Assembly (NCBI GenBank): GCA_021421665.1
Contig: GCA_021421665.1_4698.1
DNA length: 32,908 bases
Origin: a phage
Reading direction: 5' to 3' (one strand)
This document shows positions 338 to 30,548 of this stretch, piece by piece. Under the pieces are notes generated by a model. It searched no databases. It saw only the letters and a program-made list of their open reading frames with translations, and was not told the origin of the DNA. The position numbers and the translations under genes were made by a program. How positions within the stretch are numbered: position 1 is the first letter of the stretch; every line of letters starts with the position of its first letter.

Positions 338-366
338 GGTTGTCTCACACCTGAGACAGCCTTTTA
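338..366 (+). terminator. hairpin (ggttgtctca / tgagacagcc, loop CACC) followed by TTTTA; terminator-like
   Basis: 10-bp stem with one G-U pair, seen directly; T-rich tract follows immediately. Member of a three-copy GTCTCAC...GTGAGAC hairpin family (also 5661 and 22195). Confidence 0.5.
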
Positions 367-496: not shown

Positions 497-695
497 ACTA
501 AGCAAAGTTTGCTCTTGCGGTAAAGGCTATCGTAGTCGTATCGATGGTAAGTGTGAAAACTGTAGAAGCCAGAAGGATAAGGATGTGCTCTACTTATTCT
601 GGCGTGATGTATCAATACTTGATGTGAGTCCTGATTCTTTAAAAGGTAAAGTTCTAAGATTAAACACTTTTGGAGCAATCTATGAAATCAATTGA
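483..695 (+). CDS. small Cys-rich protein (70 aa), possible zinc ribbon
   Basis: ATG at 483 with GGAGGA 5 nt upstream; CSCGK...CENC four-Cys arrangement; the ORF-track start at 456 lacks an SD. Confidence 0.45.
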   Translation: MKTIKLSKVCSCGKGYRSRIDGKCENCRSQKDKDVLYLFWRDVSILDVSPDSLKGKVLRLNTFGAIYEIN

Positions 696-3228
696 TTGGA
701 AGAAGGAAGCAGAAGGTCGTATCCTCGTCATGGACGCCGAAAGTAAAGGTCTTCTTGATGCTATCCGCTATGGTCATCGTGAAGATGTACACATCATTTG
801 CTGCATGGATTTGCTTACTACCGAGGAGTTCTTATTCTTCGACCCGTATGAGATGCGTGACCCTGAAGCAAGGGAGCGCCTGAAGGAATGGGAAGGGCAT
901 CAAGATGGTGACTTGGTTGATGGTGTTAACTTCCTGAAGCACTGTGAAGCTATCGTGTCACAGAACTTCCTAGGATATGACGGTCTTCTCTTTGAGAAAG
1001 CATTCCCTGCTATCTGGAAAGGTTTTAACTATACCGAGAGGCGAGGCAAGGGCAGACTCCGCGCTGACCTGTGTCCTGTGCGAGTCATGGACACGCTGGT
1101 GATGAGTCGCCTGTTAAACCCCGATAGGCGCCTCCCTCCGCAAGCATACGCCAAAGGTATGGGTAACGTCGCCCCTCACTCAATTGAGGCGCACGGCATC
1201 CGTATAGGCCGCTATAAACCGGAGAACAAGGACTGGTCTAAGCTGACCGACCACATGGTTCACCGTGTACGTGAGGACGTGGCGATTGGTCGTGACTTTT
1301 TCCTGTGGCTGTATAACGGGGAATGGGTGGAGCACAAACGCCGTGGCGTGAATAAACGTACTGGCCTAGGCATTGAGACAGCCTTCCACATGGAATCCAT
1401 TGTGGCGCTGGAGATGAGCCGTCAGGCCGAGCGCGGATTCCGTCTGGACATCGACAAGGCGTTAGCGCGATGCGAAGAACTGGACGCTAAGGTTGATGAG
1501 ACAGTCGCAGCGTTCCGTCCGCACATGCCTATGCGTATCAAGTCTAAACCTTTTAAACCGGAAGAAAAGAATGAAGTATGCCAACGCGCAAATGAGTATG
1601 GAGCTAGCAACAATATACCTACTATCCTGGACCCCTCTCACTTTCTTCACACAGAGAGACGAGGAGATCGCAAGACAGTATGGAGTGTCACTACTAAGTC
1701 TGGTGATTGGTCAGCTAGTGTCAAGAAAGACTTTCCTCACCTTAGAGGAAACCGTAATGACACGCCAAGCATCAAGTGGATTGGTGCTTACTCGCCTGTT
1801 ACTTTCGAAGAAATTCCCTTGGGTAACAGGGATACAGTTAAGCAAGTGCTCTATGATTATGGATGGAAGGGTGTTGAATTTAACGATACCGAGCAAGCGC
1901 ATCTGGATGAGCACGGAGTGTTACCCAAACCTTGGAGTGGAAAGATAAATGAGAAGTCCCTTACTTTATGGCAGGAAAGAGCCGCACGTGAAGGTAAAAC
2001 AGTCCCTGATTGGTGCTTGGGTATCGCTGCATGGTACATACTCGTATCCCGTCGTGGTCAGATACTCAACCGTGGTGACGTTGAAGCCTTCAACGAGAAA
2101 GGAACGTGGCCCTCGCAGGCTGGTGTACGAAAGTGTCGCGGCCTTGTACCTGTAGCTTTTAACAAGGAGTTAGGGATCAATGCGCAGCAATACTACGAGA
2201 GGTATGGGTGTTGGCCTACGTCTGACAAGGATGACGGAGAGTGGCGTGTGCCAGCTATTGCTATTAGCATTGGCACTTCTACGTTCCGTATGCGTCATCG
2301 TAACGTGGTTAATATTCCTGCCCGTGGCTTGTATCCTTTACGTGATTTATTCATAGCAGGTGAAGGTAAGTTAATCCTAGGCTGTGATGGTGCAGGTCTT
2401 GAACTACGTGTACTATCTCACTTCATGAATGACCCTGAGTACCAAGATATTGTACTGCACGGTGACATACATACGCATAACCAGATGAAGGCTGGTCTTC
2501 CTAAGCGGGATATGGCGAAGACATTTATATATGCTTTCCTTTACGGATCTGGTATAGCAAACCTTGCAGCAGTATGTGGTGTTACTGAGGAAGAAATGAA
2601 GGAAGTTGTGGCAAGATTCGAGATTGAACTACCATCTCTTGCACGTCTTCGTGAGAATGTTATTGCACAAGGCAACAAGTTTGGCTACCTACAAGCACCT
2701 GATGGACACTGGGGTCGCATCCGTATGTCTGGTGGTGAACTTAAAGAGCACACTATGCTTAACGTATTGCTACAGATGACTGGTTCTTTGTGTATGAAAT
2801 ATGCATTGGTTAAGGCATTTGCAGTGATGCGCAAGGAAGGTGTGGCCTTAGATGGTATGGGAAACCCTTGTGGTGTAGCTAACGTGCACGATGAAATCCA
2901 GATGGAAGTACCTGAAGACGAGGTATTATATCTTAACTACGACTTACCTTTCACCCTAGAAGGGTTTGAAACAGAGAAGGCTGCTGTGAAGGCAGTGTTC
3001 GATGCAGAGGAGAAACGTGTTCATGTTGATTCCGAAGGGCGCATGTGGTCGGCTGCTAACTTGGTTGAAGTGGATGCTACTGCTGGTGTGTTGCGTTGTC
3101 AGCGTCGCTACCACAGGGCTGGTCATATTATCGCTGACGCAATGACTTGGGCTGGTCAGTATCTGAAGATGCGTTGCCCGATGGCAGGCGAATATAAGAT
3201 TGGTGCAAGTTGGAAGGAGACACACTAA
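682..3228 (+). CDS. DNA polymerase, family A (T7 gp5-like), with N-terminal 3'-5' exonuclease region
   Basis: Pol I motifs read in translation: DGAGLELRVLSHFMND (motif A), RDMAKTFIYAFLYGSG (motif B), VHDEIQMEV (motif C); resembles recalled T7 gp5 blocks GLELRCLAHFM and AKTFIYGFLYGAG. Start taken at ATG 682 (GGAG upstream) rather than the TTG at 670. Confidence 0.95.
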   Translation: MKSIDWKKEAEGRILVMDAESKGLLDAIRYGHREDVHIICCMDLLTTEEFLFFDPYEMRDPEARERLKEWEGHQDGDLVDGVNFLKHCEAIVSQNFLGYDGLLFEKAFPAIWKGFNYTERRGKGRLRADLCPVRVMDTLVMSRLLNPDRRLPPQAYAKGMGNVAPHSIEAHGIRIGRYKPENKDWSKLTDHMVHRVREDVAIGRDFFLWLYNGEWVEHKRRGVNKRTGLGIETAFHMESIVALEMSRQAERGFRLDIDKALARCEELDAKVDETVAAFRPHMPMRIKSKPFKPEEKNEVCQRANEYGASNNIPTILDPSHFLHTERRGDRKTVWSVTTKSGDWSASVKKDFPHLRGNRNDTPSIKWIGAYSPVTFEEIPLGNRDTVKQVLYDYGWKGVEFNDTEQAHLDEHGVLPKPWSGKINEKSLTLWQERAAREGKTVPDWCLGIAAWYILVSRRGQILNRGDVEAFNEKGTWPSQAGVRKCRGLVPVAFNKELGINAQQYYERYGCWPTSDKDDGEWRVPAIAISIGTSTFRMRHRNVVNIPARGLYPLRDLFIAGEGKLILGCDGAGLELRVLSHFMNDPEYQDIVLHGDIHTHNQMKAGLPKRDMAKTFIYAFLYGSGIANLAAVCGVTEEEMKEVVARFEIELPSLARLRENVIAQGNKFGYLQAPDGHWGRIRMSGGELKEHTMLNVLLQMTGSLCMKYALVKAFAVMRKEGVALDGMGNPCGVANVHDEIQMEVPEDEVLYLNYDLPFTLEGFETEKAAVKAVFDAEEKRVHVDSEGRMWSAANLVEVDATAGVLRCQRRYHRAGHIIADAMTWAGQYLKMRCPMAGEYKIGASWKETH

Positions 3229-3326: not shown

Positions 3327-3385
3327 GTTATACTCAAGGTCACTTACTAGTGGCCTTTATGAATAACTTAAATGAGGCAAATACT

Positions 3386-3646
3386 ATGATTAAATACACT
3401 GCTTATCAATTAACTAAAGACCGTAAGATAGGTGTTGAGGTTAAAGCTTGGAATGAAGGACACATCACTGTAGTTATAGAGTGTCTCCAAGACAATGGTG
3501 TGATGCTAAGAAGCTACCGTTGCTTCACCAAATTACGCTGCAAGGATTTAACTGAAGAATTATTCTTACGTTGTATTGTTGAATCTATTAAACTTATTAG
3601 ACCCTACGCCAAGCAAGTTGTAGGTAATGTCACAGTAGTACATTGA
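3386..3646 (+). CDS. hypothetical protein (86 aa)
   Basis: ORF-track ORF 3350..3646; ATG at 3386 is preceded by GAGG at a suitable distance; in-frame alternatives at 3350 (GTG) and 3359 (ATG). Confidence 0.5.
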   Translation: MIKYTAYQLTKDRKIGVEVKAWNEGHITVVIECLQDNGVMLRSYRCFTKLRCKDLTEELFLRCIVESIKLIRPYAKQVVGNVTVVH

Positions 3647-3668
3647 TTTACTGGACACTATAGAAGGA
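3646..3668 (+). promoter_or_regulatory. SP6-type phage RNAP promoter ATTTACTGGACACTATAGAAGGA
   Basis: Matches SP6 promoter consensus ATTTAGGTGACACTATAGAAGAG at 19 of 23 positions; predicted +1 G at 3663; intergenic. Confidence 0.8.
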
Positions 3669-3732
3669 ATGCCTAGGTAATCTAGGTTTATAAGGTAGTA
3701 TAGGTAGTTAAGTAAATATAGGAGGTATAAAT

Positions 3733-4059
3733 ATGTCTATGGTGACTACTCTGGTATTCGTGGCTCAATACTTTCGTGGCTTATCTAATAAGTTTAAGCA
3801 GAAGGCTATCTTTGCAATTCAAGAGCGTATCAATAAAATTGAAGAAGAACAAGTAGATGTAGAAGAACATCGTAGTTCTCAAATGATTGACTGCCACAAC
3901 CGCTACTATGCATCTCGTGATGACCTTAATGCGCGTCAAGTCAAAGAGGTTGAAGAGATGCTGGCCGCCACCAGCAAGAGCGTGACAAACTGGAAGCTGA
4001 CTTCGAAGAGAACAAGGCACCCATCGCCCTTGTACATCAAGCCGCATCTGACAGCTTGA
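3733..4059 (+). CDS. hypothetical coiled-coil-like protein; C-terminal part may continue in the -1 frame to 4109
   Basis: AGGAGG SD before ATG 3733. A second frame is open 3954..4109, lacks a start of its own, encodes a coiled-coil-like peptide and ends at the SD of the next gene. Confidence 0.5.
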   Translation: MSMVTTLVFVAQYFRGLSNKFKQKAIFAIQERINKIEEEQVDVEEHRSSQMIDCHNRYYASRDDLNARQVKEVEEMLAATSKSVTNWKLTSKRTRHPSPLYIKPHLTA

Positions 4060-4415: not shown

Positions 4416-4436
4416 TTACTGGACACTATAGAACAA
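4414..4436 (+). promoter_or_regulatory. SP6-type phage RNAP promoter AATTACTGGACACTATAGAACAA
   Basis: Core GGACACTATAGAA conserved; predicted +1 G at 4431; intergenic. Confidence 0.75.
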
Positions 4437-4506
4437 TAGGACGTGGGTTTGTCAGAGACAGTAAATCCAAGGTGCTCAGTGAGCGTAAAGCCTAAGCACG
4501 TCCTAT
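4436..4506 (+). promoter_or_regulatory. large stem-loop at the 5' end of the transcript (RNase III-site-like)
   Basis: ataggacgtg (4436-4445) is a perfect 10-bp complement of cacgtcctat (4497-4506), enclosing 51 nt with sub-hairpins; further hairpins at 4531-4547 and 4551-4565; 188-nt untranslated leader before ATG 4625. Confidence 0.4.
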
Positions 4507-4624
4507 GATTGTAAAGTGTTTAACCGCCTTTTGTGCATCTTGCACAACCCGAATCAATCGGGCTTTCTAGTGAGTACATGCTTGTGCTCAGTACAAAGCT
4601 AACTGACAATAGGAGACTAAATAA

Positions 4625-5660: not shown

Positions 5661-5676
5661 GTCTCACACGTGAGAC
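5661..5676 (+). other. hairpin gtctca-CACG-tgagac (family member)
   Basis: 6-bp stem with tetraloop seen directly; no T-tract follows; lies between a gene end and the promoter at 5692. Confidence 0.3.
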
Positions 5677-5691
5677 AAATAGGTGTCCGGT

Positions 5692-5714
5692 ATTTACTGG
5701 ACACTATAGAAGAG
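5692..5714 (+). promoter_or_regulatory. SP6-type phage RNAP promoter ATTTACTGGACACTATAGAAGAG
   Basis: 21 of 23 match to the canonical SP6 promoter; predicted +1 G at 5709. Confidence 0.8.
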
Positions 5715-5764: not shown

Positions 5765-6130
5765 ATGTTCAAGATTGAAACTATCGTAAACCGTGTTGTT
5801 AAAGGTGCTGCTCTGGTATCCGTTGAGTCTTTCATTATCGTCGATGAAGCCGACCAACTGGTAGCTGGTACTAAGGCTTATGATACTCGTGAAGAAGCTC
5901 AGGCTAAAATTGACAGCATGGGTAACTTCGCTGCTGGTCTGGAGTTTGCTCGTGCTTGTTTCCCTGAGCAGGCTGACAAAGCTCAGATTGGTAAGGCTAA
6001 CATCGTAGCTGAGTATCTGGATTGGATTGCTGCTGGTAAACCCGTGAAAGAAGCTAAGGCTGAAGAAGCTGAAGTAGTAGAAGACGTAGCTGCACCGGAA
6101 GTACCGGTAAGCGAAGAAGAAGAGTTTTAA
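5765..6130 (+). CDS. hypothetical protein (121 aa) with acidic C-terminal tail ending in Phe
   Basis: AAGGAG SD 8 nt before ATG 5765 (ORF-track start 5735 lacks an SD); C-terminus ...PEVPVSEEEEF; own promoter upstream and terminator-like hairpin downstream. Confidence 0.6.
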   Translation: MFKIETIVNRVVKGAALVSVESFIIVDEADQLVAGTKAYDTREEAQAKIDSMGNFAAGLEFARACFPEQADKAQIGKANIVAEYLDWIAAGKPVKEAKAEEAEVVEDVAAPEVPVSEEEEF

Positions 6131-6136
6131 TTGATG

Positions 6137-6168
6137 CCCTGTCTGCCTTAGTGTAGGCAGGGTCTTTT
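6137..6168 (+). terminator. terminator-like hairpin (ccctgtctgc / gtaggcaggg) followed by TCTTTT
   Basis: 10-bp stem with two G-U pairs, then a T-tract; same sequence family as the hairpin at 15316. Confidence 0.5.
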
Positions 6169-6194
6169 GCGTAATAGTTATTGGAGAATGAATT

Positions 6195-6500
6195 ATGCCG
6201 ACTATTGGATCTCGTTTAGTAGCAGACTATGTTTATGGTTGTGACTTAAAGCTGGGACAAGATTATTTTAAAGTAATCGTCTTGCTGGATGGAGAAGTGT
6301 TTCACACTAAAACATTCACCCTACCTGAGTTATTTGATTTAGGTTATTGGGGTTATACTTATCAGGCCATAGCAGACAAGGTGCTACTCAGTGTATTAGA
6401 GGAGTGGCCTACATGCGACCAAACTTCGACTTCGGAGCTACAGTATCGGAAGACAATAATCTCATCCTGTGGCCGACTGAAGGTAATCGAATCGCTTTAG
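6195..6500 (+). CDS. hypothetical protein (101 aa)
   Basis: GGAGA SD before ATG 6195; its 3' end overlaps the exonuclease start by 88 nt, so its true extent is uncertain. Confidence 0.4.
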   Translation: MPTIGSRLVADYVYGCDLKLGQDYFKVIVLLDGEVFHTKTFTLPELFDLGYWGYTYQAIADKVLLSVLEEWPTCDQTSTSELQYRKTIISSCGRLKVIESL

Positions 6501-8836: not shown

Positions 8837-8853
8837 TTGACACTATAGAACAA
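8831..8853 (+). promoter_or_regulatory. SP6-type phage RNAP promoter ATTTAGTTGACACTATAGAACAA
   Basis: Overlaps the stop codon of the preceding gene; predicted +1 G at 8848; a hairpin (aagggta...taccctt) follows within the first 30 nt of the transcript. Confidence 0.75.
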
Positions 8854-8903
8854 AGGGTAGGTGCTAGCTTACCCTTGATTGTATAGTGAATGGAGGAATT
8901 AAT

Positions 8904-15307: not shown

Positions 15308-15315
15308 TACCTATG

Positions 15316-15348
15316 CCCTATCTACCTTGCGTAGGTAGGGTTCTTTTT
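15316..15348 (+). terminator. terminator-like hairpin (ccctatctac / gtaggtaggg) followed by TTCTTTTT
   Basis: 10-bp stem with one G-U pair, then a T-tract; immediately after the capsid gene, the position T-phi occupies in T7. Confidence 0.6.
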
Positions 15349-18504: not shown

Positions 18505-19232
18505 TGGCTATAGGTTCAGCCGTTATGGCTGGTATGTCTTCTATTGGCAGTATGTTTGCAGGTAGTGGTGCAGCAGCCGCTGCTGGAGGGACTGCCGCAA
18601 CAGTAGGTGGCGGAGGTTTACTAGGTTCCGTGGGAGGTTTCCTAAGTGGTTCCACTGGTGGCTTCTCCAATGCAGGCTTGCTTAGTGCAGGTATGCAAGG
18701 TCTAGGGCTTATAGGTAACCTTTTTGGTGGAAGGGATGAAGCCAAAGCTATGAAGAGGGCTCAGGAGGAGCAATGGCGGCAGCAGTTAATTGCTACGCAG
18801 GAGGCATACAAAACAGTGGCAGATGCAGAACGCTCTGCTGCTAAACAGTACCATGCCGACGCAATAAGTAATCAGGCTTCTCTGCTACAGCAGCGAGCAC
18901 AGGTTGCATTGCTTGCTGGTGCTACTGGTACTGGTGGTAACTCTGTGTCTTCTATGCTAAACGACTTAGCAGCAGAAGGCGGCAGGAACCAGAGTACAAT
19001 TATTGATAACTATGAGAATCAGAAGATTAACTTCACTAATCAGCTTAAGTCTATTCAGCGTGGCGGACAGATGCAAATGCGTGAGTTTAAGAAGCCTTCT
19101 GCTGTAAGCACCTTGGTTCAAGGTATCCCGAGTCTGGCTTCTGCCTATGTAACAGGTAGTAAATCGGGTATGGCATTAGGTAAAGCATTAACTGATTCTC
19201 GTACCTATTCATCTGGAACAAGAGGTATTTAA
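18504..19232 (+). CDS. internal virion protein (gp14-like)
   Basis: 242 aa with Gly/Ala-rich N-terminus and Gln-rich helical region; translationally coupled within the structural block. Confidence 0.65.
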   Translation: MAIGSAVMAGMSSIGSMFAGSGAAAAAGGTAATVGGGGLLGSVGGFLSGSTGGFSNAGLLSAGMQGLGLIGNLFGGRDEAKAMKRAQEEQWRQQLIATQEAYKTVADAERSAAKQYHADAISNQASLLQQRAQVALLAGATGTGGNSVSSMLNDLAAEGGRNQSTIIDNYENQKINFTNQLKSIQRGGQMQMREFKKPSAVSTLVQGIPSLASAYVTGSKSGMALGKALTDSRTYSSGTRGI

Positions 19233-22194: not shown

Positions 22195-22222
22195 CTTGTC
22201 TCACATGTGAGACAGGTCTTTA
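22195..22222 (+). other. hairpin cttgtctcac-AT-gtgagacagg followed by TCTTTAT (family member)
   Basis: 9 to 10-bp stem seen directly; T-rich tract follows; between the two large internal virion protein genes. Confidence 0.4.
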
Positions 22223-26610: not shown

Positions 26611-26896
26611 ACATGCAGCTACAGAGGATGAGGTTGGCATTCTGCATGGTGCTATTACCAAAATCTTCAATAAGAAAGCACAGGCTATACTGGACACTAT
26701 AGAAGAAGACCCAGATGCAGCACTGCATTTAGTGTCTGGTAAAGACATTGGTGCTATGTGCAAATGGGTTCTTGATAATGGTATTACCGCTACACCTGCT
26801 GCACAGCAGGAAGAGTCCAAGTTGTCTAAGCGCCTCAAGGCTATCCGAGAGGCATCTAGTGGTAAGATTATTCAGTTTACAAAAGAGGACAATTAA
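26594..26896 (+). CDS. terminase small subunit (gp18-like)
   Basis: 100 aa, GTG start after GGAGGGAG, immediately upstream of the large terminase; positional assignment. Confidence 0.65.
   Translation: MSVHNKHAATEDEVGILHGAITKIFNKKAQAILDTIEEDPDAALHLVSGKDIGAMCKWVLDNGITATPAAQQEESKLSKRLKAIREASSGKIIQFTKEDN
26685..26707 (+). promoter_or_regulatory. intragenic SP6-promoter-like sequence CTATACTGGACACTATAGAAGAA
   Basis: Core CTGGACACTATAGAAGA is intact but the two upstream positions differ from all intergenic copies; lies inside the small terminase coding sequence. Confidence 0.35.
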
Positions 26897-28794
26897 TGGC
26901 TAAGGCAAGAGAATCACAAGCGGAGGCTCTTGCCAGATGGGAGATGCTACAGGAGTTACAGCAGACCTTTCCTTACACAGCGGAAGGTTTGCTTCTCTTT
27001 GCAGATACAGTTATTCATAATCTGATTGCAGGCAACCCTCATCTGATTCGTATGCAGGCCGATATCTTAAAGTTCCTATTCTATGGGCACAAGTATCGAC
27101 TCATCGAAGCGCCTCGTGGTATCGCTAAGACAACACTCTCAGCAATCTATACAGTCTTCCGTATCATCCATGAACCACATAAGCGTATCATGGTTGTATC
27201 CCAAAATGCCAAGCGAGCAGAGGAAATCGCCGGTTGGGTAGTTAAAATATTCCGTGGCCTAGACTTCCTTGAGTTTATGCTACCTGACATATACGCTGGA
27301 GATCGTGCATCCGTCAAAGCCTTTGAGATTCACTACACGTTACGCGGCAGTGATAAGTCGCCTTCTGTGTCCTGTTATTCTATTGAAGCAGGTATGCAGG
27401 GTGCTCGTGCGGATATTATCCTAGCAGATGACGTAGAGTCTATGCAGAATGCTCGTACAGCAGCAGGTCGAGCCTTACTTGAGGAATTAACCAAGGAGTT
27501 TGAATCTATCAACCAGTTTGGTGATATCATTTATCTTGGTACACCTCAGAACGTAAACTCTATCTACAACAACCTACCTGCTCGCGGCTACTCTGTTCGC
27601 ATCTGGACTGCACGTTACCCTTCGGTGGAGCAAGAGCAATGCTATAGTGACTTCCTTGCACCTATGATTGTGCAGGATATGAAGGACAACCCAGCACTTC
27701 GCTCAGGTTATGGCTTGGATGGCAACAGTGGTGCACCTTGTGCCCCTGAAATGTACGATGATGACGTCCTGATTGAGAAGGAAATATCGCAAGGTGCTGC
27801 TAAGTTCCAGCTCCAATTCATGCTTAACACTCGCATGATGGATGCAGACCGCTATCCTCTACGTCTGAATAACCTCATCTTCACCTCATTTGGCACAGAG
27901 GAAGTCCCTGTGATGCCTACATGGAGTAATGACTCTATTAACATCATTGGAGATGCACCTAAGTATGGCAATAAACCTACAGACTTCATGTATCGACCTG
28001 TTGCCAGACCATATGAATGGGGTGCTGTTACCCGTAAGATTATGTATATCGACCCGGCGGGTGGCGGTAAGAATGGGGACGAAACGGGTGTAGCGATTGT
28101 CTTCCTGCATGGCACATTCATTTACGTGTATCAGTGCTTCGGAGTACCGGGCGGATACCGTGAATCGTCTCTGAATCGCATTGTGCAGGCCGCAAAGCAG
28201 GCGGGTGTTAAAGAGGTATTCATTGAGAAAAACTTTGGTCATGGCGCGTTTGAGGCGGTAATTAAGCCATACTTTGAACGTGAGTGGCCCGTTACACTGG
28301 AAGAGGATTACGCTACCGGACAGAAAGAGTTGCGTATCATTGAGACGCTAGAGCCGCTCATGGCGGCGCACAGGCTCATCTTCAACGCTGAGATGGTCAA
28401 GTCTGACCTTGAGTCAGTACAGCACTATCCGCTTGAACTACGCATGTCCTATAGCCTTTTCAATCAAATGTCGAACATCACGATTGAGAAGAACAGCCTC
28501 CGGCACGATGACCGCTTAGACGCTCTGTACGGCGCTATACGGCAATTAACTTCTCAGATAGACTATGACGAGGTTACACGGATTAATCGCCTCAGAGCGC
28601 AGGAGATGCGCGATTATATCCAAGCTATGAATACACCTCACCTCCGCAGGGCAATGCTCTATGGAGATTATGGGACTGAGCGAAGAGTGACCAACACTTC
28701 TGTAGCGATGCAGCAGCGGGTTTATGGTCAGAACTACCGGAATAAGTCTTCCAATAGAAATACCATTTCTGCAAGGATTTCAAGGACTTATTAA
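26896..28794 (+). CDS. terminase large subunit (gp19-like)
   Basis: 632 aa; Walker A-like EAPRGIAKTT; acidic catalytic stretch ADIILADDVE; position after small terminase. Confidence 0.92.
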   Translation: MAKARESQAEALARWEMLQELQQTFPYTAEGLLLFADTVIHNLIAGNPHLIRMQADILKFLFYGHKYRLIEAPRGIAKTTLSAIYTVFRIIHEPHKRIMVVSQNAKRAEEIAGWVVKIFRGLDFLEFMLPDIYAGDRASVKAFEIHYTLRGSDKSPSVSCYSIEAGMQGARADIILADDVESMQNARTAAGRALLEELTKEFESINQFGDIIYLGTPQNVNSIYNNLPARGYSVRIWTARYPSVEQEQCYSDFLAPMIVQDMKDNPALRSGYGLDGNSGAPCAPEMYDDDVLIEKEISQGAAKFQLQFMLNTRMMDADRYPLRLNNLIFTSFGTEEVPVMPTWSNDSINIIGDAPKYGNKPTDFMYRPVARPYEWGAVTRKIMYIDPAGGGKNGDETGVAIVFLHGTFIYVYQCFGVPGGYRESSLNRIVQAAKQAGVKEVFIEKNFGHGAFEAVIKPYFEREWPVTLEEDYATGQKELRIIETLEPLMAAHRLIFNAEMVKSDLESVQHYPLELRMSYSLFNQMSNITIEKNSLRHDDRLDALYGAIRQLTSQIDYDEVTRINRLRAQEMRDYIQAMNTPHLRRAMLYGDYGTERRVTNTSVAMQQRVYGQNYRNKSSNRNTISARISRTY

Positions 28795-28815
28795 TTACTG
28801 GACACTATAGAAGGA
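28793..28815 (+). promoter_or_regulatory. SP6-type phage RNAP promoter AATTACTGGACACTATAGAAGGA
   Basis: Starts at the terminase stop; predicted +1 G at 28810; followed by a 130-nt AT-rich leader with TAGGT repeats and hairpin gggtgtac-TACT-gtacaccc (28887-28906). Confidence 0.8.
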
Positions 28816-28946
28816 AGGCCCAGAGAATAAGAGAAATAATAGGTAATATATAGGTTAACCTAGGTTATATAGGTATGCCTTAGTATGGGTGTACTACTGT
28901 ACACCCTATTCCTTCCTTACTATATTTACATAATAGGAGAGAGACA

Positions 28947-29225
28947 ATGGCTAATGATTATAGTAGTCAACCATTAACAGGTAAGTCTAAGAGAAAGCAG
29001 GTACAACCTGTAAGTGAAGCACTAATGCTTCCGGTAATCCCAAAAGAGGAAGCTAGTAAGAAAAGCAATGTTATTAATGATGCCACCAAATCAGGTAAAC
29101 AGAAAGGGGCAATGGTATGCCTTGAAGTGGACGATGGTGTATTGAAGATTGCTATCGCGGTTGATGGCAAAGAAGATTCAGAGTGGAAGTTAGTGACAGT
29201 GGAACCCACTGTTACCCCAGCTTAA
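28947..29225 (+). CDS. hypothetical protein (92 aa), paralog A of a tandem pair
   Basis: AGGAGAGAGA SD; shares the block SGKQKGAMV-LE--D--L-IA-A and C-terminal VTPA with the next gene. Confidence 0.6.
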   Translation: MANDYSSQPLTGKSKRKQVQPVSEALMLPVIPKEEASKKSNVINDATKSGKQKGAMVCLEVDDGVLKIAIAVDGKEDSEWKLVTVEPTVTPA

Positions 29226-29243: not shown

Positions 29244-29528
29244 ATGGCTAAATATGGTGAAGGTTCTGTTACTGGTCAGGCTTTTCGAGTAAAAGCAGTA
29301 CAAACTATTGCAACGGCAATCCCTATGCCTGTTGTTAAAGAAGCAGACCTTAAGAGTAAAGATCACCCTATAAACATCAAACACCTGTCAGGTAAACAGA
29401 AAGGTGCAATGGTTGCTCTTGAGAAAGCGGACACAACCTTACATATTGCTGTTGCACGTGGTAGTGAACCAACAGACCCTTGGGATGTAACTGGTATGGA
29501 ATCGGACGCTGTTACTCCGGCAGGGTGA
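29244..29528 (+). CDS. hypothetical protein (94 aa), paralog B of a tandem pair
   Basis: GAGGAGGA SD; shares SGKQKGAMVALE and a VTPAG C-terminus with the preceding gene. Confidence 0.6.
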   Translation: MAKYGEGSVTGQAFRVKAVQTIATAIPMPVVKEADLKSKDHPINIKHLSGKQKGAMVALEKADTTLHIAVARGSEPTDPWDVTGMESDAVTPAG

Positions 29529-30477: not shown

Positions 30478-30548
30478 ATAGAGTGGCGATCATTTGGTCG
30501 CCTTTACTCAAGGTGCTCATGGTGGGCGCTTTAAGTAAAGGAGGAAAC

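Follow-up and report, generated by a model that had tools for sequence, protein, structure and literature searches.

Replication in phage T7 follows a paradigm in which origins need a promoter and AT-rich DNA, with no initiator recognition sequence. phiOL is said to have been described as a T7 origin by Rabkin and Richardson in 1988, and the RNase III site R1.1 lies between the promoters phi1.1A and phi1.1B. Other 5' leaders contain polypurine STAB-SD elements, which resemble Shine-Dalgarno (SD) sequences and act as 5' mRNA stabilisers or ribosome standby sites. The primary T7 origins are phi1.1A and phi1.1B and the secondary origins are phiOR and phi6.5; a T7 promoter is essential to every T7 origin, and a phiOR plasmid requires inactivation of rnhA (PMC8373140). 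The transcript-priming mechanism has been described in a preprint (10.1101/2024.07.25.605042).

The window (the whole stretch of 32,908 nucleotides that was analysed) is, by database comparison, approximately 88-92% identical to SP6/K1E/K1-5-like podophages (Autographiviridae, Molineuxvirinae). All of its large ORFs lie on the plus strand. Cumulative GC skew was considered as an origin marker and rejected: the skew is monotonic, and its inflection is uninformative because the genome is transcribed in one direction. Eight SP6-type phage promoters are predicted, with +1 positions (assigned from the start site of SP6 promoters) at 3663, 4431, 5709, 8848, 14052, 26702, 28810 and 30472. A tailspike-like gene begins at 30483 on the plus strand. 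Three promoter-associated sites are discussed here: site A, after the RNA polymerase gene and outside the window; site B, after the DNA polymerase gene (670-3228, plus strand); and site C, after the large terminase gene (26896-28794, plus strand). The site B promoter is of the SP6/K1E type (3646-3668, plus strand, predicted +1 at G3663; ATTTACTGGACACTATAGAAGGA). The site C promoter (28793-28815, plus strand, predicted +1 at G28810) overlaps the stop of the large terminase gene, and a 19-mer core is identical between the two promoters (28797-28815 at site C). Most relatives (K1E, K1-5 and many others) match the window from precisely the beginning of the site B promoter onwards (query positions 84-85, window 3643-3644), while the ORF upstream of it (3350-3646) is common only to SP6, PSK8 and a few others. 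This promoter, with its leader, is therefore a junction of mosaic recombination.

Four TAGGT-type repeats had been noticed downstream of the site B promoter, at 3669-3732, in a sequence-only reading of the window, and these are present as quoted and where they were placed. The array occupies 3674-3705 on the plus strand and consists of four 9-nt units (TAGGT at 3674, TAGGT at 3683, AAGGT at 3692 and TAGGT at 3701), the first of which starts 11 nt past the predicted +1. It is followed by a Shine-Dalgarno sequence (AGGAGGT, 3720-3726, plus strand) and the start codon (ATG, 3733-3735) of a small plus-strand gene (3733-4059, 108 amino acids). The product belongs to PHROG 7450, for which "polysaccharide chain length determinant" is an annotation only. 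No host sigma-70 promoters were found in the site B leader. At site C, the array (28840-28874, plus strand) starts 30 nt past the predicted +1 and has four exact TAGGT units (28840, 28851, 28861 and 28870), an inverted unit ACCTA (28858-28862) and the palindromes AGGTTAACCT and TAACCTAGGTTA. The small gene after site C (28947-29225, plus strand) encodes a 92-amino acid protein of PHROG 2725 and has a paralog at 29244-29528. Between the SD and ATG of this gene is a (GA)n microsatellite (28935-28946), the length of which differs among relatives (AGGAGAGAGACAATG in the window versus AGGAGAGAGAGAGAGAGAGAATG in K1E). Such differences alter the SD-to-start spacing and could provide tuning or phase variation of translation. 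Domain searches of the genes downstream of or neighbouring the arrays revealed no DNA-binding, RNA-binding or initiator domains.

The description of segment 3669-3732 as AT-rich is correct (70% A+T versus approximately 55% in the window), but the enrichment is modest and similar to that of other leaders. The segment is distinctive in its depletion of C (5% C) and its many TA steps. The same motif order had been proposed to recur after the promoter at 28793; the two leaders are indeed alike in unit type and layout, but cannot be aligned outside of the repeats. Genome-wide, the TAGGT word is not rare, with 57 copies on the plus strand and 39 on the minus strand against 37 +/- 6 in dinucleotide shuffles. 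Clusters of the word are found at the two leaders only: at least three copies within 45 nt occur at just two places in 32.9 kb, the site B and site C leaders. In 1000 dinucleotide shuffles, the mean was 0.023 clusters per window, two or more clusters occurred in one shuffle and a four-unit cluster occurred in none.

The site B and C leaders are conserved in more than 100 database phages of E. coli, Salmonella, Klebsiella, Citrobacter and Raoultella, with Proteus phages carrying site C only. In eight complete genomes, TAGGT clusters occupy the transcribed strand at no more than three fixed positions, each just downstream of a phage promoter; the one exception is a minus-strand cluster in K1E. 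TAGGT clusters within coding regions are unrelated runs of GGT codons. Counted as five or more WAGGW motifs within 90 nt of the start, arrays follow only two of the eight promoters in the window and 2-3 of the 8-11 promoters per genome in the eight complete relatives. The first 90 nt of the A, B and C leaders contain 4-7 WAGGW motifs (at least five in all but one), whereas every other phage-promoter leader contains 0-2. The repeat array is a real, conserved, promoter-coupled element. A second promoter-leader family (4431-4520 and 8848-8900), kept in all relatives examined, has a 5' stem-loop right after +1 followed by a conserved box, GATTGTAWAGTG. The terminator after the major capsid gene (15308-15345) has a stem of the same words (CCCTATCTACC/TAGGTAGGG), followed by TTCTTTTTGT.

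An array that travels with its promoter might have no selected function at all, being low-complexity DNA made by slippage and carried with the promoter cassette as a recombination linker of mosaic modules. The mosaic junction at the site B promoter, the identity of the B and C promoters over 19 nt, and the signs of TA and GA dinucleotide slippage in the leaders at site C are consistent with this. However, the arrays keep three fixed positions across E. coli, Salmonella, Klebsiella and Proteus phages, are also found in more distant contigs with different promoters and have invariant AGG cores while their spacers vary, and the chance expectation for clusters given above is low. A lack of function is thus considered very unlikely.

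A unit consensus of wwATAGGTArT (core wATAGGTArT) was derived from 124 units, in which the base following GG is T in 78% and A in 19%. Of 102 spacings between units, 85 are 9 or 10 nt; site B shows 9 nt throughout, and the range at site C is 8-20 nt. When 14 diverse site C leaders were aligned, the invariant columns of the array were the TAGG cores and the CCTAGG palindrome, while the spacers, the spacer length (9, 11 or 15 nt through TA slippage) and the copy number (4-8) were variable. A collection-wide scan for three phased TAGGT units at fixed spacing returned 120 loci, mostly unrelated arrays or chance matches, and was thus of little use for characterising this family. Unrelated viral contigs bear their own tandem arrays, some of CCTAGGT(G/A)G (5-7 units) and others of TTTAGGTT, so short arrays of the TAGGT type also occur outside SP6-like phages.

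Several identities for the units were rejected. AGGTA arrays are kept in clades with differing promoter sequences at -12 to -8 (TACTGGACAC, TAGGTGACAC, TAAAGACCAC, GTGGCGAGTA and GGGCGGAC); because the motif persists across these clades and does not co-vary with the promoter specificity region, the units are not decoy or partial phage promoters. A CsrA/Rsm-type sponge RNA was rejected because the core is GGT and not the GGA needed by CsrA. Helical phasing was rejected because the modal spacing of 9-10 nt varies by TA slippage, such that the array has no fixed geometry. Iteron theta-type origins of plasmids and phages also have direct short repeats beside easily melted DNA. In contrast to iterons, the units described here are 9-10 nt long (versus approximately 17-22 bp), are unphased and variable in spacing and copy number, have no Rep or other initiator gene adjacent and are strictly coupled to a phage RNA polymerase promoter. 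The suggestion that the segment is a "binding array" is not supported, given these same features and the lack of co-variation with promoter specificity.

A related possibility is that the repeats, as DNA or as RNA, are bound sequence-specifically by a conserved protein. This might be a phage regulator or road-block, a primase-helicase loader, or a host factor that the abundant leader RNA titrates. The invariance of the AGGTA core amid variable spacers and copy number, the retention of the motif in clades of quite different promoter specificity, and the presence of overlapping palindromes at all sites (ACCTAGGT, TAGGTATACCTA and TAACCTAGGTTA) agree with this possibility. The variable spacing, the GGT core, the absence of binding or initiator domains among the products of the neighbouring genes and the loss of single units in some relatives all speak against it. 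We know of no candidate factor for array binding, and a protein site of this kind appears improbable.

The layout of site A is the same in 25 loci. The RNA polymerase gene is followed by a terminator, a 16-bp palindrome, promoter 1, a 5' hairpin, the AGG array, a pyrimidine tract, the palindrome again, promoter 2 and a gene whose product starts with MRNFEK. This gene is a member of the Pfam family Phage_1_1 (E-value: 4e-10) and a homolog of T7 gene 1.1. With 5-8 units located between tandem promoters (e.g. 6100-6330 in sequence L001), the site A array is the largest of the three. Its position matches that of the T7 primary origin (gene 1, phi1.1A, phi1.1B, AT-rich leader and gene 1.1). The large terminase gene is immediately followed by site C, as T7 gene 19 is by phiOR; site B has no positional counterpart in T7. 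Of the candidates for a primary origin and/or an RNase III site in SP6-like phages, site A is the strongest.

The palindrome preceding both tandem site A promoters belongs to a family of 16-bp perfect palindromes (GTCTCACATGTGAGAC) with three copies in the window (342-357, 5661-5676 and 22198-22213) versus 0.16 expected. All three copies are intergenic, and one is just upstream of the promoter at 5692. Compensatory substitutions are found in relatives (GTCCAACGTGTTGGAC in SP6-type phages), and the palindrome could either fold as a hairpin in the RNA or act as an operator for a dimeric protein.

Duplex stability was calculated in sliding windows using nearest-neighbour DNA parameters (nominally those of SantaLucia 1998). 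The least stable 60-bp segment of the window is 3674-3733 (-64.3 kcal/mol, compared to a mean of -81.1 and sd of 4.6), which ranks first or second at segment lengths of 40-100 bp. The second least stable is 28826-28885 (-65.0 kcal/mol). The site B and C segments have a z of about 3.6 at 60 bp and rank 1-3 at 40-100 bp, whereas the leaders of the other six promoters rank 3-250. Among the complete relatives, site B is first or second whatever the window size, and at 60 bp the ranks are 1-7 for site C and 3-15 for site A (z about 2.6-4.2). At other window sizes, site A falls as low as rank 27 and site C as low as rank 23 in the two Proteus phages. In Proteus phages that lack the site B array and the gene that follows it, the leader of the post-DNA-polymerase promoter is still a top minimum: this array-less leader comes first in PM85, and in Pm5460 it ranks 4-6 at 40-80 bp.

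In T7, which served as a control, the four 60-bp segments of lowest stability coincide exactly with the leaders of phiOL (rank 1), phi1.1B (rank 2), phi6.5 (rank 3) and phiOR (rank 4), and these origin leaders rank 1-5 at all window sizes. The other 12 T7 phage promoters rank 7-230 at 60 bp, with the phi10 leader rising to rank 4 at 40 bp. A metric that recovers the T7 origins thus also selects the TAGGT leaders in the window. The four T7 minima are located at 405-480, 5923-6006, 18545-18620 and 39229-39330 of the T7 genome. Three of the four T7 origin leaders also contain short repeats of the ACTTAAAG/TTAAG type approximately 10 nt apart: phiOL is followed by ACTTAAAG repeated every 10 nt, phi1.1B by four copies of TTAAG and phi6.5 by CTTTAAG/CTCTAAG. 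R-loop thermodynamics was considered as a property that might unify the three sites. As measured by RNA:DNA hybrid-minus-duplex free energy (parameters nominally those of Sugimoto 1995), sites A and C fall in the top 0-4.5% of windows and site B in only the top 6-23%. Because site B is ordinary on this measure, the property was rejected as a unifying one.

The explanation favoured here, with confidence a little short of even, is that the arrays function as T7-type transcription-primed replication origins or as DNA-unwinding elements. It is favoured because the arrays are the two least stable segments of the window by a metric that marks the T7 origins. The promoter-coupled origin first suggested by the sequence-only reading is strengthened by the restriction of the arrays to two of eight promoters and by the synteny of sites A and C, in addition to the two stability minima and the T7 control. 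It is weakened by the lack of a T7 counterpart for site B and by conserved RNA hairpins at site C (discussed below). The stability of the window's capsid leader (rank 3-27) and the smooth tail of the stability distribution also count against an origin, as do the ordinary RNA:DNA hybrid value of site B and the AGGTA core, which is kept across genera more strictly than AT-richness alone would need. An informal look for a conserved primase site (5'-GCA-3' in SP6) found none.

Compared to the T7 primary origin, the promoters of the arrays likewise fire into a leader that is a genome-wide stability minimum (rank 2 in T7, ranks 1 and 2 in the window). In both cases the leader has short repeats approximately 10 nt apart and ends at the SD of a small gene, and at site A the genome position is identical (RNA polymerase gene, tandem promoters and Phage_1_1 gene). 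The two systems differ in the repeat itself (wATAGGTArT here, YTTAAG in T7), in the placing of the site A array, which sits between the two promoters instead of following the second, and in that sites B and C are elsewhere than the primary-origin position. Origin activity is an experimental finding in T7 and a prediction for the arrays. The secondary origins phiOR and phi6.5 and the phiOL origin resemble the arrays in having a single phage promoter followed by low-stability DNA (ranks 4, 3 and 1 in T7, respectively), and all three leaders also precede small non-essential genes. phiOR further shares with site C its location right after the large terminase gene, but its leader has palindromes and no comparable direct-repeat array. 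phi6.5 follows the exonuclease gene, whereas site B follows the DNA polymerase gene. Although site B is not found at the position of a T7 origin, it may provisionally be classed as working like one.

The main alternative is that the arrays act at the RNA level only, as a module of the 5' leader involved in processing, stability or translation. Duplex instability would in that case simply follow from the A/U-richness of the leader, and low stability could have arisen through selection for a translation leader that is A/U-rich and free of structure. This alternative takes two forms. In the first, the AGG repeats pair with CCUA or pyrimidine tracts, producing an RNase III-type site at A, a closed multi-hairpin structure at C and a small 5' hairpin at B. 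In the second, the repeats are unstructured SD-like landing sites located before the true SD. The confinement of the arrays to the transcribed strand, within 5' leaders, fits both forms and counts against the origin explanation.

With regard to the first form, site A RNAs form long imperfect hairpins in which the array is the 5' arm and a clade-matched pyrimidine tract is the 3' arm (z -1.9 to -4.6). The site is syntenic with R1.1 of T7, and the R1.1 region shares ACCUUCUUCC with the K1E-type pyrimidine tract of this hairpin. T7 RNase III sites such as R1.1 have a similar form, being imperfect hairpins located between genes and next to promoters, in which a purine-rich 5' arm pairs with a pyrimidine-rich 3' one; cleavage at site A is predicted by analogy. 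The consensus fold across clades lacks the long pairing, however, and all that it retains is the 5' hairpin, a small hairpin of UAGG with CCUA and the palindrome. It is not recovered because the register of the array/pyrimidine pairing differs in each clade.

At site C, the consensus structure proposed by RNAalifold has three elements: a closing stem, a self-fold of the array via the inverted ACCUA unit, and a GC-rich hairpin. The closing stem pairs AAGGAAGG (28811-28818, plus strand) with CCTTCCTT (28911-28918), encloses the array and the hairpin and has G-U variants in relatives. The GC-rich hairpin (28887-28906, plus strand; GGGTGTAC-TACT-GTACACCC) is followed by a pyrimidine tract (TATTCCTTCCTTAC), has a terminator-like score and shows compensatory changes between clades. 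In 14 sequences, 94% of cells are paired, compared to 42-63% when the partners are slid. The covariation is 0.286, versus at most 0.128 for slid partners, and is reached in none of 500 shuffles; these values are subject to the cautions that the structure was itself derived from this alignment and that few clades account for the changes. As many of the pairs are G-U, the structure is strand-specific. This covariation-supported RNA structure counts against the origin explanation, while the fold of the single site C sequence is unexceptional (z -0.92).

At site B, an RNA structure is weakly supported. A candidate 5' hairpin (arms 3669-3676 and 3682-3689, plus strand, loop GUAAU; AAGCCUAG[GUAAU]CUAGGUUU) has the core CCUAG/CUAGG and includes repeat units 1 and 2. 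One of its pairs is compensatory (AU/GC/GU), and a TAGGT to TAGAC change in some relatives sits in the loop with the stem kept. However, the covariation is not significant because there is little variation, and the fold is no better than those of shuffles (z -0.48). In Klebsiella-type site B leaders, AGGT is kept in units 1 and 2 while inner pairs of the stem are lost. No pyrimidine partner was found for the site B array, and a transcript-wide search gave no outstanding duplex. Measured against the approximately 20 bp or more of local, imperfect double-stranded RNA of a T7-type RNase III site, site B has a hairpin of 6-8 bp (at most 8 bp, with no pyrimidine arm), site A has a duplex of sufficient length and site C corresponds in part, being multi-branched rather than one long duplex. 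A search of Rfam 15 gave no match at the gathering threshold anywhere in the window.

With respect to the second form, the units resemble the phage's own SD context (TATAGGAG), and like STAB-SD elements they are AGG-containing, purine-rich repeats in a 5' leader. They differ from STAB-SD elements in having only 4 nt of complementarity to the anti-SD, with consistent and conserved mismatches in the flanks. In addition, a second promoter separates the site A array from the next gene, placing the array away from the start codon, so the array is not a translation enhancer at that site. An RNA-level function also leaves unexplained why these leaders, like the T7 origins, are genome-wide stability minima. 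As the sole explanation of the arrays, it is judged possible but somewhat unlikely. The two functions are not mutually exclusive: the array DNA also encodes a hairpin-bearing 5' UTR, and so a second, RNA-level role alongside that of an origin is likely.

The proposed model for replication from the arrays as T7-type origins is as follows. Phage RNA polymerase would start at the promoter and enter DNA rich in TA steps, which is held open more readily than any other part of the genome. Phage DNA polymerase would then take over the nascent transcript as a primer, and the primase-helicase would load onto the displaced strand. We infer both the start of replication at the arrays and this mode of initiation from the parallels with T7. 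The AGGTA repeats might go beyond providing meltable DNA and be specific recognition elements, although this is doubtful. They could, for example, direct loading of the primase-helicase or DNA polymerase on the displaced strand, or be sites for a conserved host factor on the abundant leader RNA. If so, the origins or regulatory leaders of SP6-like phages would be defined by sequence, which would depart from the T7 paradigm.

To our knowledge, this array family is new, although the kind of element is already known. Full-text searches of the accessible literature returned nothing on origins, leaders or RNA processing in SP6-like phages. SP6 RNA polymerase comes from the SP6/K1E group (Molineuxvirinae), to which therapeutic K1-capsule phages also belong; as far as we know and the searchable literature indicates, the origins of this group have never been mapped. 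The arrays provide three precise candidate origins per genome. They also suggest a simple origin predictor, namely a phage promoter followed by a genome-wide minimum of duplex stability, which recovers all four known T7 origins; we have not seen such a predictor stated for T7-like phages. If the arrays are origins, it would be of interest why each subfamily keeps its own short leader repeat (wATAGGTArT as opposed to YTTAAG in T7). The promoter and array could then be used as orthogonal promoter-plus-origin cassettes for replication systems based on SP6 polymerase, and the T7 model of transcription-primed initiation would extend to a distant subfamily.
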